Counted from the first letter of the stretch, positions 9,064-63,180 are shown. The stretch is 64,000 nt of DNA from Nannocystis bainbridge (GCF_028368995.1 NZ_JAQNDL010000005.1:64001-128000); one strand, 5' to 3'. Notes: a model not told the origin generated them from the letters alone. Program-made: numbers and translations.

Positions 9064-9295
9064 TGACCTTCCGGACATGGCCGCCGGGACCTGCGCCTTG
9101 CGACAGGTCCTTGCGGCCATGTTTTTGCCTGGGCTCGCGGGTGCAGCGAGCCGGGCCGACGTGACGGCCCGCCCTGTTCTTTTCGCCAGGTCCTCGAGTC
9201 TCGTCGCGCACGCCGGCCTGGAAGAGGCGCAACGGACATGTCCGAGGAGACATGGCTGTCAATGCCTCTTGCGACATGTCCGATGACACATGTCA
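9064..9295. repeat. Two phased arrays of the 14-bp TGYCY-N4-RGRCA palindrome
   Basis: Units at 9064, 9078, 9092, 9106; then 9225, 9239 (TGTCCGAGGAGACA) and 9263, 9277. Confidence 0.75.
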
Positions 9296-9396
9296 CGCCG
9301 GCGCCCTCGCGCGTCGAGGACTTGTTCCCCGCAAGCCCGAACGGCGAGCCGGCGGGACGCGCATCTCGGGAGCTCGCCCCGCTGCCTCGCACGCGG

Positions 9397-9713
9397 CGCG
9401 TGCTTGCTTCACGAACAGCGAAGCGGCCGGGACTCGCGTCCCGACGGCTCCTCGTTCAGCGGCTGCGCCCGTGCTCGCCTCGTGAACAGCGAAGCCGCCG
9501 GGACTCGCTCAGCAACTCTGCCCGTGCTCGCGTCATGAACAGCGAAGCCCGCCGGGACTCGCTCAGCAACTCTGCCCGTGCTCGCGTCATGAACAGCGAA
9601 GCCCGCCGGGACTCGCGTCTCGACGGCTCCGCGCCTCCGCGCGGCCCGTGCTTGCTCTCCTGAACGGCGAAGCCGCCGGGACTCGCGCCCCGACGGCTCC
9701 TCGTTTCAGCGCC
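9397..9713. repeat. Five-copy degenerate tandem repeat (core about 42 bp)
   Basis: Core gcccgtgctcgc-N4-tgaacagcgaagcc(c)gccgggactcgc at about 9397, 9467, 9520, 9574 and 9644. Copies 3 and 4 are 54 bp apart with identical cores. Confidence 0.85.
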
Positions 9714-9721
9714 TTGGCGCC

Positions 9722-59656: not shown

Positions 59657-59672
59657 ACCGCCCGGCGGCCCG

Positions 59673-61118
59673 CTACGACGCCACCGAAAGGCTGCGCCCG
59701 CGGATGTCCTCGACCAGCGCCCCCGGCAATTGCTTCGTGCGCGAGAACTCGCGCATGTGGCGGATCGGCAGCTCGCCGAGCGACGCGATCGTCTGCTCGC
59801 CGATCTTCTCGACGTACTTGCGCGGGGCGAACGCGATCAGTTCGTCGCCGCCCGCGGGCGTCTGCGCCAGCACCTCGAGCAGCGCGTCGAGCGAGTTCAT
59901 CTTCATGAACGGGCAGGTCGCGCAGCCGCCCGCGGTCGAGCAGCCCTCGCCGCCGGCCACGCCCGGCACCAGCGGCAGGTGCACGTCGCCGGTCGCCACC
60001 ACCGCGGCGTCGGCCACCGGGAACACGATCTCGACCTCGACCGGGCGCGGCAGCGTCTGCAGCAGCGCTCGCACCTGGTGGACGATCGCCGTCACCATGC
60101 CCGCCTCGGTCCCGAGCACGAACTGCAGGCGCACCGGTGACCTGTCCCCGGGGACAGCCCCGACCCGCTTCACCTCGGCGGCGATGTAGTCGAGGATGTT
60201 CGAAGTCGACCCGACCACCCCGCGACCGTGACGCTGGGCCTCCAGCGCCAGCGCGAACATCTCGCCCGGCACCTCGAGGTGGGCCGTGACGTGGGCGTCC
60301 GCGTAGTCGTCCTGGACCCGCCGCACCACCTCGCCGCCGAACATGTGGTGGACGATGCACGAGCCCTGCTCGAAGTGATGGAACCGGGGCAGCAGCGCCC
60401 GCACGCTGGCGGCGTCGTGGCCCGGGTGGAGCGCGCGCACGGCCGCGTCGTCCATGCCCGCCAGGCTCGACAGCAGCGCCCGCAGGTTCTCGCCCATGTA
60501 CGTGTCGGGCCCGAACCACACGTGGCCCTCGGGCACCTGCGCGAACGCCTGCAGCACCGTCTGGATCACGTTCGACGAGGTGCAGGTGATCGTCGGCACC
60601 AGCGATTGCGCGTACGCCTTGGTCCGCAGGCTGGTGTTGATATAGACGACGTGCAGCGAGTCGGGCGTCTGCGACGCGCGTCGCAGGTAGGCCGCGTAGG
60701 CCGGCGCCTCGGCGGCCGCCGCCAGCGAGCAGCCGATCGGCTCTTGCGACACGCGGTAGACCGGCACGTGCTCGAACCCCGCGGCGTCCATCACCGCGCG
60801 CACGTTCTCGGACATGAAGTCGACCCCGAGCACGATGATCGCCCGCGCACCCTCGCGGGCCATCTGCAGCGCCCGGTCGGCCATCACCAGCGAGTCCGAG
60901 ATGTGGATGTGCGGCCAATCGCAGGCGAACAGCACGCCCTGCAATTCGGCGTCCATGTAGAAGTGGGCCACGATCCCCGCGCCGCTGGCCTCGAGCAGCT
61001 CGCGCAGCCGCCGCACGGTGGCCGGATCGGGGTCGAGGAACGCCGCCTGGGCCTCCGCAAAGGCCCCCTGGGCGGTCGCGCCGCCGGCGCTGAGCACGAG
61101 CGAAGGGAACGGCTGCAT
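59673..61118 (-). CDS. nadA: Quinolinate synthase NadA (long, plant-like type)
   Basis: AHFYM, DSL, GVDFMSE, GCSLA, YINTS, CTSSN, GPDTYMG, CIVH, AHLE, GST, GTE, CPFMK. Confidence 0.9.
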   Translation of the reverse strand: MQPFPSLVLSAGGATAQGAFAEAQAAFLDPDPATVRRLRELLEASGAGIVAHFYMDAELQGVLFACDWPHIHISDSLVMADRALQMAREGARAIIVLGVDFMSENVRAVMDAAGFEHVPVYRVSQEPIGCSLAAAAEAPAYAAYLRRASQTPDSLHVVYINTSLRTKAYAQSLVPTITCTSSNVIQTVLQAFAQVPEGHVWFGPDTYMGENLRALLSSLAGMDDAAVRALHPGHDAASVRALLPRFHHFEQGSCIVHHMFGGEVVRRVQDDYADAHVTAHLEVPGEMFALALEAQRHGRGVVGSTSNILDYIAAEVKRVGAVPGDRSPVRLQFVLGTEAGMVTAIVHQVRALLQTLPRPVEVEIVFPVADAAVVATGDVHLPLVPGVAGGEGCSTAGGCATCPFMKMNSLDALLEVLAQTPAGGDELIAFAPRKYVEKIGEQTIASLGELPIRHMREFSRTKQLPGALVEDIRGRSLSVAS

Positions 61119-61257
61119 CGCCGCAAAGCCTAGTGCCCGGGCCCCCCTGTTTCAACCGCCGCACGCACGATTCGGCCACCACCTGCACCGCGAGAATTCA
61201 CGCCACCTCACGCGCATCGGCCCTCGCCCGCACGCCGGGCTCGGCTAGCGTCCGGCC

Positions 61258-63180
61258 ATGGAACGCCTCCGCGCCCCCGAGCTGGAACCCGCCCGTGCCT
61301 GGCTCGGCACCACCCGCCCGCTGCGGCTCCGCGAGCTCCGCGGCCACGTCGTCGTGCTCGATTTCTGGACGTCGTGCTGCGTGAACTGCATGCACGTGCT
61401 GCCGATCTTGCGGGACCTCGAGCGCCGCCACGCGGGCCGGCCGGTCGTCGTGATCGGCGTGCACTCGGCCAAGTTCCCCGGCGAGGCCGCGCCCGAGCGG
61501 GTCGCCGACGCGATCGCGCGCCACGACGTGCACCACCCGGTGGTCGTCGACGACGGCCTGGCGATCTGGGAGCGCTACGCGATCCGCTCGTGGCCGACCC
61601 TCGTGGTCATCCGGCCCGACGGCACCATCGCCGCGGTCGCGCCCGGCGAGCCCGATCCCGCCGCCCTCGACACCCTCGTGCGCGGGCTCCTGGCCGAGGC
61701 CGAGGCCCACGGCACCCTCGCCGCCGCGCCGCTGACGATCCCGCGCGGCGACCCGCCACCTCCGCGTCCGCTGGCCTTCCCGGGCAAGCTCGCGGTCGCC
61801 GACGACGGCCGGATCGCCGTCGCCGACTCCGGGCATCACCGCGTCCTCGTGCTCGCGCCCGACGGCGAGGTCCTCGTCACCATCGGCTCCGGCCGTCGCG
61901 GCCAGCAGGACGGCCCGTTCGCCGAAGTCCGCCTCGACGACCCGCAGGGCCTCGCCTGGGCCGAAGACGGCGCGCTGTGGATCTGCGACGCCCGGGCCCA
62001 CACCGTCGCCCGCGCCGATCTCTCGGCTGGCCGTTTGCACACGGTCGCCGGGACAGGTTCCATGGGACATGTCCCGATCGCCAGCCCCGCGCCGGCCCGC
62101 GCCACCGCCCTGCGCTCGCCGTGGGACGTCGCGCTCGTCGGCGAGCGGGCGCTCGTGTGCCTGGCCGGCTCGCACCAGCTCGCCGCGCTCACCCCGTCCG
62201 CCGATGGCGGCTGGACCGTCGCCATGCTGGCCGGCGACGGCCGCGAGGCCCTTGTCGACGGGGCGCCGCGCGAGGCCTGCTTCGCCCAGCCGTCCGGCTT
62301 CGCCCGCGCCGGCGACCGGCTGTGGATCGCCGACAGCGAGACCTCGGCGATCCGCGAGCTCGACCTGTCGACCGGCGACACGCGCACCCTCGTCGGCCAG
62401 GGCCTGTTCGACTGGGGCGCCGAGGACGGCCCGTTCGCCGCCGCCAGCCTGCAGCACCCGCTCGCCGTCGCCGTCACCACGAACGGCGACCTCGTGGTGG
62501 CCGACACCTTCAACGATCGCCTGCGCCGGCTCGACCGCCGCGCCGGCCAGGTCACGACCCTGTCTCTCGGGACAGGTGATGAGTCCCTGCGCGAACCCGG
62601 CGGCCTCGCCGTGCTGGCCGACGGCGACCTGCTCGTCGCCGACACCGGCCACCACCGCCTGGTCCGCCTCGCCAGCGACGGCCGCTTCAAGGCCGAGCTC
62701 GCGGTCCGCGGCGCCCCGCCGATGCCGACCCCCGCCGACGAGCCGCCCCCCTCGCTCGCCGCCGCCCCGGCCTCGCGGTGGTTCGACCTCGTGCTCGCCC
62801 AGGCGCCGAACCTGGCCCCCGGGCGCGCGCGCGGCCAGCTGCGCCTGCTCGCCCCGGAGGGCTGGAAGTTCAACGACGGCGCCCCGCAGCGGCTCGCGCT
62901 CGAGGTCTCGCGCCGCTCCGATCTGGTGACAACCACCGACCGCATCTCGCTTCCGGGACAGGGCCGATCCGACATGTCCTTCGAGATCGACCTCGAGGTC
63001 GCCGAACTCCCGACATCGGAGGTCCGCAGCGAGCTCCTCGTGCGCGTCGACGCCGTGCTGTGCGGCGGCGACCCGGAGGTGTGCGCGCCCTCGCAGGCGT
63101 GGCTGCGGATCCCGCTGCTGCTCACGCAGGCCGGCGATTCGGCGTTCACCGTCGATCTGACCCTGGCGACGCCCGTCTGA
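61258..63180 (+). CDS. Thioredoxin-like plus NHL repeat protein (NHLRC2/SOQ1-like)
   Basis: LDFWTSCCVNCMH, GVHSAKF, WPT, NHL repeats (FPGK, ADSGHHR, PQGL, SPWD, AQPSG, ADSETS, LQHPL). Confidence 0.9.
   Translation: MERLRAPELEPARAWLGTTRPLRLRELRGHVVVLDFWTSCCVNCMHVLPILRDLERRHAGRPVVVIGVHSAKFPGEAAPERVADAIARHDVHHPVVVDDGLAIWERYAIRSWPTLVVIRPDGTIAAVAPGEPDPAALDTLVRGLLAEAEAHGTLAAAPLTIPRGDPPPPRPLAFPGKLAVADDGRIAVADSGHHRVLVLAPDGEVLVTIGSGRRGQQDGPFAEVRLDDPQGLAWAEDGALWICDARAHTVARADLSAGRLHTVAGTGSMGHVPIASPAPARATALRSPWDVALVGERALVCLAGSHQLAALTPSADGGWTVAMLAGDGREALVDGAPREACFAQPSGFARAGDRLWIADSETSAIRELDLSTGDTRTLVGQGLFDWGAEDGPFAAASLQHPLAVAVTTNGDLVVADTFNDRLRRLDRRAGQVTTLSLGTGDESLREPGGLAVLADGDLLVADTGHHRLVRLASDGRFKAELAVRGAPPMPTPADEPPPSLAAAPASRWFDLVLAQAPNLAPGRARGQLRLLAPEGWKFNDGAPQRLALEVSRRSDLVTTTDRISLPGQGRSDMSFEIDLEVAELPTSEVRSELLVRVDAVLCGGDPEVCAPSQAWLRIPLLLTQAGDSAFTVDLTLATPV

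Follow-up and report, generated by a model that had tools for sequence, protein, structure and literature searches.

A short palindromic repeat, TGYCY-N4-RGRCA, was characterized in a 64-kb stretch of the Nannocystis bainbridge genome (contig C5, positions 64001–128000; hereafter the window) and across the whole of that genome (G000; 11.05 Mb, 71.5% G+C, five contigs). The repeat occurs as single dyads and as head-to-tail arrays in an exact 14-bp register, and its strongest regularity is the placement of the arrays at gene 3′ ends and stop codons, a feature absent from the first-pass annotation of the window in which the repeat was described. The feature is real, ancient within its clade and selected. 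Its anatomy, placement, taxonomic range and age, and the purifying selection acting on the motif, are shown by the analyses reported below. The repeat is best filed as a new variant of the repetitive extragenic palindromic (REP) and bacterial interspersed mosaic element (BIME) kind, with a mechanism that is probably at the DNA level. The first-pass annotation had spoken of an undescribed REP-like system; this is upheld by a high-copy, dispersed palindrome located after genes, of which no description was found in the literature searched (supplementary files being outside its reach).

Anatomy and abundance of the 14-bp unit

The strict site pattern, TGYCY-N4-RGRCA, has 32 matches in the window, compared with a mean of 0.70 and a largest count of 4 in 100 dinucleotide-preserving shuffles, and 4173 matches in the genome. 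The earlier claim that the dyad is highly iterated is thereby confirmed, and the four single sites that had been listed (45655, 53634, 60143 and 62561) are exact matches at these positions. Genome-wide, the distances between sites fall at 14 bp (275 pairs), 28 bp (161), 42 bp (145), 56 bp (80) and 70 bp (29), with zero pairs at 13 and 15 bp; the periodicity anticipated for 14, 28 and 42 bp is thus present and extends further.

Arrays were called with a chaining rule, in which a seed matching at least 9 of the 10 defined positions is extended by units matching at least 7 of 10 at a step of exactly 14 bp. In this manner 952 arrays of at least four units were found in the genome, as against 9 in the control, the reversed (not complemented) genome, and all six arrays previously proposed for the window were recovered, with 6–8 units each; those at about 16078, 20866, 34492 and 48274 were also confirmed by reading the sequence itself. 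Arrays of 4, 5, 6, 7, 8, 9 and 12 units number 240, 339, 228, 106, 31, 6 and 2, respectively, and the size distribution displays a secondary peak at 5–6 units (70–84 bp). Together the arrays account for 71,274 bp, with a G+C content of 58.8% overall and 49.9% in the spacers, and they are located on all five contigs with an over-dispersed distribution (mean 17.2, variance 72 per 200 kb).

The dyad spacing is strict, with 2828 occurrences for N4 versus 91, 93, 54 and 28 for N2, N3, N5 and N6, respectively, and 38 with the halves swapped. The junction between units, GGRCATGYCC, is common (1771 occurrences versus 29–52 expected). Almost all of these 1771 strict 10-bp boxes are accompanied by a second half-site at N4 distance, and the 35 exceptions are about as many as chance would give. 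The N4 dyad is therefore the basic unit, and the CATG box marks the place where two adjoining units meet. Consequently, the second dyad that the junctions had been said to create, RRRCATGYYY, is ruled out as an element of its own.

The core of the unit reads TGYCC-N4-GGRCA, and three more conserved bases are found on each side, so that the full site is a palindrome of approximately 20 bp, ACMTGYCC-N4-GGRCAKGT. Single units have the form ACC-TGTCC-N4-GGACA-GGT, while array units are flanked by ACA and TGT, neighbours in an array sharing ACATGT. At the junctions the flanks of CATG are anti-correlated, ACATGC and GCATGT being favoured over ACATGT and GCATGC (odds ratio (OR) 0.46, z −9.7). Preferred spacers are CTTC/GAAG, TTCG/CGAA, CTCG/CGAG and GATC, and 3677 distinct units were counted among 5091. 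Within the arm, the joint occurrence of T at positions 2 and 3 is disfavoured (OR 0.32). The tetranucleotide CATG is over-represented genome-wide (39,940 versus 32,145 expected), largely owing to the arrays (7006 in chains).

Placement of the arrays relative to genes

Gene contexts were derived from a crude gene finder based on codon statistics (8303 genes, 85% coding), on which all placement figures depend. The 952 arrays are divided between convergent (485), tandem (285) and divergent (25) spacers and the interior of predicted genes (157), whereas the base-pair share of each context predicts 133 convergent, 427 tandem and 235 divergent positions for the 795 intergenic arrays. An array of at least four units is present in 441 of the 1524 convergent spacers. 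Arrays lie a median of 3 bp from the closer stop. In tandem spacers 222 of 285 arrays are closer to the upstream stop (medians, 9 bp from the stop and 173 bp from the start that follows). The stop codon is found at unit phase 0, with TGA replacing TGY, in 134 of 840 cases, or else in the spacer; many genes therefore end inside an array, as is visible in the window at 16064, 20880 and 48274. Strict single dyads number 270 in convergent, 522 in tandem and 130 in divergent spacers, and 888 are genic. The idea that the arrays are free of stop codons was rejected, as 4.02 of six frames are open compared with 4.15 in other spacers.

Taxonomic range and age

The survey took in 11 genomes of the genus Nannocystis, 30 genomes of other genera and a sample of 400 more from the phylum. 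Runs of three CATG boxes in 14-bp register were counted 850 times in G000 and 475–536 times in five more Nannocystis genomes of large size, as compared with 0–12 times in five smaller, more fragmented genus genomes and 0–1 times in the genomes of other genera; among the 400 further genomes only 4 gave matches, all of which are perfect micro-satellites. Phased arrays are confined, among the genomes surveyed, to the six large Nannocystis genomes. Enrichment of the single dyad extends to all 11 genus genomes (170–2846 versus 8–34 for the control) and to two sister genera (G011, 246 versus 47; G013, 233 versus 18), and no further. The comparison of Nannocystaceae with the rest of the phylum that the first-pass annotation had proposed limits the enrichment of the dyad, among the genomes surveyed, to Nannocystis and these two genera. 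The single form flanked by C...G was counted 539 times in G000, 625 times in G009, 81 times in G013 and 19 times in G011. Since dyads are found throughout the genus and in the sister genera while arrays are restricted to six genomes, single units are ancestral and arrays derived. The system is thus older as single units and was only later turned into arrays, an aspect on which the earlier annotation was silent.

Conservation and probable growth in place

Selection was assessed from two species (G005 and G007) that are 95% identical, syntenic over ~200 kb and share 21 orthologous arrays. Substitutions were observed at 11 of 340 positions in the TG..CA core (3.2%), 62 of 508 in the arms (12.2%) and 50 of 338 in the spacers (14.8%), the difference between core and spacer being highly significant (p=7e-8), and the flanks differ by 5.8%. 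Changes in the arms are mainly transitions that preserve Y or R (49:24, versus 23:37 in the spacers; p=0.0015). Seventeen of the 21 arrays are indel-free, and none was gained or lost.

Array positions are kept across six species, with differing unit number (4–9) and sequence, as is illustrated by two places in the window. At 16064 an array of 4–9 units, differing in sequence, is found in all five congeners examined, and at 20880 arrays of 4–5 units are present in four of the five (by the chain criterion); in the array-poor congener G009 the latter place holds one dyad at the gene end. Arrays at different loci have a spacer identity in register of 0.333, versus 0.332 when permuted, and as there is no similarity between loci beyond the consensus the arrays are not recent copies of each other. 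Identical spacer pairs within an array amount to 3.4–3.9% in direct and 3.6% in mirror orientation (distance 2), versus 1.25% between arrays, an excess that points to local duplication, both direct and inverted. The first-pass view that the units are not slippage copies is therefore mostly right in light of the 3677 distinct units among 5091, although the within-array excess is a trace of duplication.

Copies inside genes

Predicted genes contain 1065 of the 2828 dyads, versus at most 80 for the spacing controls, and for 105 of the 157 genic arrays the distance to either end of the predicted gene exceeds 150 nt; for many of these internal arrays a coding signal is seen in one frame on both sides. 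The clearest case is the Lhr helicase, whose DEAD and Helicase_C domains are separated by the array, an in-frame insertion of 4–5 units in six array-rich congeners. This insertion is not present in the array-poor congener G009, nor in G028, which belongs to another family. Across the six species 22 of 24 CATG cores of the Lhr array are intact, and the spacers and the encoded peptide differ. A contig (L070) filed under a Burkholderiales-type metagenome-assembled genome title matches the Lhr segment with 99% identity over 80 residues, and looks like mis-binned Nannocystis.

Repeats in the window

The arrays, chains and single dyads of the window are as follows; ORF denotes an open reading frame.

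9064–9119: four-unit phased array (chaining), 2 bp past the stop of predicted gene 8192–9061 (+), in a convergent spacer
9225–9266: three-unit chain in the same convergent spacer as the 9064 array
16064–16175: eight-unit array (six good units from 16078, outer ones degenerate) in a tandem spacer, 346 bp before the next gene; its first unit carries the TGA stop of gene 14192–16075 (+)
20880–20963: six-unit array encoding the C-terminal tail and stop of gene 20235–20933 (+), with a convergent gene next
26822–26863: three-unit chain between convergent genes, with gaps of 2 bp and 43 bp to their stops
31685–32443 (+): eight single dyads inside ORF 30976–32829, three of them within a 69-bp tandem repeat
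34492–34575: six-unit array that takes up a whole convergent spacer, leaving 7 bp and 9 bp to the stops on either side
37076–37117: three-unit chain in a divergent spacer, 77 bp before gene 37195–38325, a rare placement
38448–38531: six-unit array between convergent genes, with gaps of 122 bp and 11 bp to their stops
42106–42189: six-unit array between convergent genes, with gaps of 11 bp and 51 bp to their stops and an RNA fold z of −5.9
45655–45668: single dyad TGTCCAAAGAGACA, exact pattern match
48274–48385: eight-unit array, last two units degenerate, overlapping both stops of a convergent pair (−17 and −8 bp)
53634–53647: single dyad TGTCCCGGGAGACA, exact pattern match
58116–58187: pair of dyads (58116 and 58174, at a distance of 58 bp) inside a row of 22-bp tandem repeats (Tandem Repeats Finder)
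60143–60156: single dyad TGTCCCCGGGGACA, exact pattern match
62561–62574: single dyad TGTCTCTCGGGACA, exact pattern match

A comparison with empty sites at 26822 gave no clean boundary, the spacer being rearranged between species. The dyads at 31685–32443 are translated as DLSLRTS-like linker repeats, and their interpretation as a promoter or operator region is ruled out by their location inside the ORF. The 69-bp tandem repeat in this ORF (3.1 copies, 31705–31915) contains one dyad and one DLSLRTS-like peptide per copy. In congeners, some of these dyads are conserved and some have decayed.

A DNA site or an RNA hairpin

The explanation that we favour, with moderate confidence, is a REP/BIME-like family lacking a RAYT (REP-associated tyrosine transposase) that was amplified in place and is kept by a putative sequence-specific reader, probably acting on DNA. 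Single units would have been present in the ancestor of Nannocystis and the two sister genera, mostly downstream of genes. In the large-genome Nannocystis the outer flank would then have turned into ACATGT, a flank by which adjacent units can share 6 bp, and single units may have been amplified in place to head-to-tail arrays in strict 14-bp register, and ~950 arrays now mark gene 3′ ends, foremost between convergent genes. The motif is most likely kept by a reader of double-stranded DNA, or of both strands alike, in the form of a dimeric protein able to occupy successive units. By analogy with what has been proposed for REP/BIME clusters, the arrays might act as gene-end elements that block read-through or provide a topological barrier.

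Sequence rather than pairing appears to be what is kept, as the mutual information between paired positions does not exceed 0.012 bits and the arms are one shared sequence across thousands of units. The spacer tetranucleotides are strand-neutral in one-directional contexts (TTCG 114 versus CGAA 126; GNRA 154 versus TYNC 148), and a preference for stable tetraloops on the sense strand was rejected on account of this lack of strand bias. Hairpins are predicted for the arrays but a U-run, defined as at least 5 T in 8 nt, follows in only 36 of 1255 flanks, so that the arrays do not fit the definition of intrinsic (Rho-independent) terminators.

An RNA-level element, in which array hairpins or long stems end transcription both ways or shield mRNA 3′ ends from exonucleases, is in our view doubtful, even though it is the main rival and would account for a number of observations. 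The palindromic form would serve both genes of a convergent pair, and both the location right after stops and the depletion in divergent spacers would be expected. Four further results favour such an element and weigh against a reader of DNA. Paired positions covary, weakly but specifically (OR 1.18, 1.37 and 1.66; z 2.3, 3.3 and 4.6), whereas unpaired combinations used as a control gave OR 0.89–1.21. In one-directional contexts the sense strand is rich in G and T (TG 737 versus CA 528). Another perfect stem of at least 8 bp occurs in 49 of 197 motif-free convergent spacers (25%) versus 17 of 151 array-bearing ones (11%). Finally, eight arrays of the window fold well as RNA (z −2.6 to −5.9), with stable folds predicted for both strands (z −3.9 and −3.6 for the + and − strands, respectively, of the 34492 array). 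Conversely, the conservation over ~5000 units extends to the arm sequence itself, beyond pairing, and the motif is kept in the Lhr gene, where it is translated and a terminator would serve no purpose or do damage. The sense-strand skew represents a single degree of freedom, which transcription-linked mutation fits equally well. As the skew can be explained otherwise, no loop bias or U-run is seen, and the motif is present in a translated gene, a reader of duplex DNA or of both strands is favoured.

The favoured explanation is further weakened from several sides. The arms evolve about as fast as the spacers (12.2% versus 14.8%, p=0.30), so that strong constraint is proven for the core only, and not every copy is kept, as single dyads in one gene have decayed in some species. 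Some of the genic arrays are artefacts of the gene finder, in which a frame runs into the antisense of a convergent gene. The gene-end function is inferred from position only, and no protein that reads the motif came to light: at the 10 scanned loci of 12 (all but L060 and L062), the isolated 20-bp sites of divergent spacers are flanked by unrelated genes. These neighbours include a hemerythrin, a kinase, a P450, EutBC, an outer membrane protein, a PEBP, one WYL regulator and a group II intron reverse transcriptase. The gene of the latter type (RVT_1 and GIIM; C2:1697259–1702060) lies 921 bp from an isolated 20-bp site.

A more specific form of the favoured explanation, which we regard as possible and put forward tentatively, is gene-end punctuation, in which a clade-specific dimeric protein would read the 20-bp palindrome and polymerise in 14-bp register over 70–100 bp at ~950 gene ends, acting as a two-way roadblock or a supercoil barrier, the flank change to ACATGT having enabled the polymerisation. 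Three units correspond to 42 bp, or four helical turns, and a polymerising protein would therefore follow a three-fold screw. Two circumstances could, just as tentatively, be read in the same light: the host has a 71% G+C genome with gene ends that lack U-tract terminators, and the change of flank to ACATGT may coincide with the radiation of the large-genome Nannocystis. The cooperatively polymerising dimeric protein of the first-pass annotation is compatible with the importance of sequence over pairing, the R/Y degeneracy, the strand-equal spacers and the selection on the core; the protein itself was not found.

Mobility, molecular drive and stepwise addition

The repeat could instead be a selfish mobile element of the MITE (miniature inverted-repeat transposable element) or REP-like kind, devoid of host function, whose copies were spread by a unit-recognising enzyme and whose 3′-end placement reflects tolerance of insertions. 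This we consider unlikely. The ~1065 of 2828 dyads and ~105 arrays in predicted genes, far above the controls, would be expected of such an element, as would the in-frame Lhr insertion missing from G009 and G028, the restriction of the expansion to one clade and the bump in array size at 5–6 units. Still, a search for Y1_Tnp (PF01797) gave 0 matches in G000, in 11 of 11 genus genomes and in the sister genera (G011 and G013), while the same search matches 6 of 14 control genomes. Y2_Tnp yielded a single weak, partial match without flanking units. Arrays at different loci are alike only in their consensus, and no array out of 21 was gained or lost between species that are 95% identical, with a constrained core, where a dead element would decay evenly. 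A MITE is also ruled out by the lack of similarity between arrays past the consensus, and no clean pair of empty and filled sites with a target duplication was found.

Molecular drive, either of the kind known from DNA uptake sequences (DUS) and uptake signal sequences (USS) or by motif-directed repair as proposed for HIP1, with secondary use at gene ends, would fit a clade-specific word in thousands of evenly dispersed copies, frequent in coding regions in any frame and kept without a transposase. In Neisseria, terminators are known to contain DUS as inverted pairs. A drive acting on so short a word would, however, leave the strict N4 spacing and the exact 14-bp register unexplained, and Vsr (PF03852) was detected in just 1 of 11 genus genomes, making this account distinctly improbable. 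An enzyme that adds 14-mers stepwise, the other mechanism raised in the first-pass annotation, is hardly credible: the strict register and the identity of some adjacent units would agree with it, but units differ within arrays (3677 distinct among 5091), the unit number is stable in the 17 of 21 arrays that are indel-free between close species, duplications are mirrored as well as direct, and no candidate enzyme was found.

Relation to known systems

In PMC3733652 and PMC3184786, REPs are described as 20–40-bp palindromes downstream of genes, between convergent or unidirectional ORFs, single or clustered, with some copies inside replication and repair genes. According to PMC3733652 and PMC3184786, they are tagged by GTAG or CGTC; the GTAG class has RAYT transposases, and for the CGTC class no transposase is known. 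Compared with the REPs and BIMEs of Enterobacteria and Pseudomonas, the Nannocystis unit is similar in being high-copy, clade-specific, located after genes in convergent and tandem arrangements, partly intragenic and, like some REP families, without a dedicated transposase. It differs in size, since its core of 14 bp and full length of ~20 bp place it at or below the lower limit for REPs given in PMC3733652. Among the 1078 sequences that flank 539 single units, GTAG is present in 9 and CGTC in 42, a frequency not above that of other tetramers, and the RAYT (Y1 transposase) was found in no genome of the genus examined; lacking both tag and RAYT, the Nannocystis repeat stands outside those REP families. 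BIMEs are clusters in which units of alternating orientation are joined by defined linker motifs and which bind IHF and gyrase. The Nannocystis repeat differs from BIMEs in that its units abut with shared flanks in an exact 14-bp register and have no linker motifs, and an alternating orientation of the BIME type cannot be told here because the units are symmetric. We know of no counterpart to this exact head-to-tail tiling with shared flanks.

Rickettsia palindromic elements (RPEs) are, according to PMC3184786, palindromic repeats in frame in conserved protein genes and translated, as single elements of ~105–146 bp with a conserved sequence. The Nannocystis arrays are similar to RPEs thus described in being in frame in Lhr and in ~100 further candidates. 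They differ in consisting of 14-bp units that share their arms only.

Short symmetric boxes that abut in fixed register are found in MetJ met-boxes, omega heptads and the sites of ParG/ParR, where adjacent dimers are thought to touch; such arrays occur at one or few loci per replicon and have a known protein, whereas the Nannocystis arrays are present at ~950 loci and their reader is only putative. HIP1 of cyanobacteria and DUS/USS are clade-specific short words in thousands of copies, also in genes, with neither a transposase nor a fixed dyad spacing. The Nannocystis word is unlike GCGATCGC of HIP1 and has both a fixed dyad spacing and phased arrays. The sites of matS, Noc (NBS), RacA (ram) and SlmA are 12–16-bp palindromes read by dimers, with tens of sites confined to a chromosome region; the Nannocystis sites differ in being numbered in thousands, spread across five contigs and tied to gene ends. 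The junction GGACATGTCC equals the p53 half-site consensus letter for letter, a coincidence of sequence only, and the literature on GGACATGTCC consisted, among the matches listed, of p53 or unrelated eukaryotic papers. A CRISPR array, defined by repeats of 23–50 bp, unique spacers of comparable size and cas genes, is ruled out by the 14-bp period and the 4-bp spacers, with an Rfam scan that returned rRNA and tRNA only (no search for cas genes was made).

Forty years after REP-type repeats became known, their upkeep and function are still argued. In Nannocystis the motif is under selection with no transposase to explain its upkeep, and the ancestral single-unit and derived array states both survive in cultivable congeners. 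With so small a unit and so exact a register, whatever reads it has to work at a fixed geometry. The combination of a tractable unit, both states and selection makes the questions of a REP reader, and of terminator versus supercoil barrier, directly testable in this genus. In practical terms, stop codons and C-terminal tails lie within arrays and ~100 proteins carry array-encoded peptides, for which gene calling and protein alignment in these genomes should allow.

Further observations on the window and the assembly

A gathering-threshold Rfam scan of the window detected rRNA and tRNA only, and no family for the array repeats. A complete rRNA operon (5S, 23S, two tRNAs and 16S) lies at 878–6321 on the − strand and is dyad-free. 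Past the 9064 array, within the same long convergent spacer, a 54-bp tandem repeat (2.8 copies, 96% matches) spans 9467–9616, with a sequence unrelated to the 14-bp unit. The cumulative GC skew is one-directional along nearly the whole of the contigs, with extremes at or near the contig ends, and the contigs therefore look like pieces of single replichores; the exception is C3 (2.0 Mb), with a maximum at ~1.47 Mb. The only arrays that are 100% identical to each other are found in larger repeats at contig ends, on C5 near 711217 and 716590 and on C2 near 840, and more identical arrays in contig-end repeats are located on C1 near 4516424–4533718 and on C2 near 3023405–3030939. These contig-end repeats carrying identical arrays probably broke the assembly.

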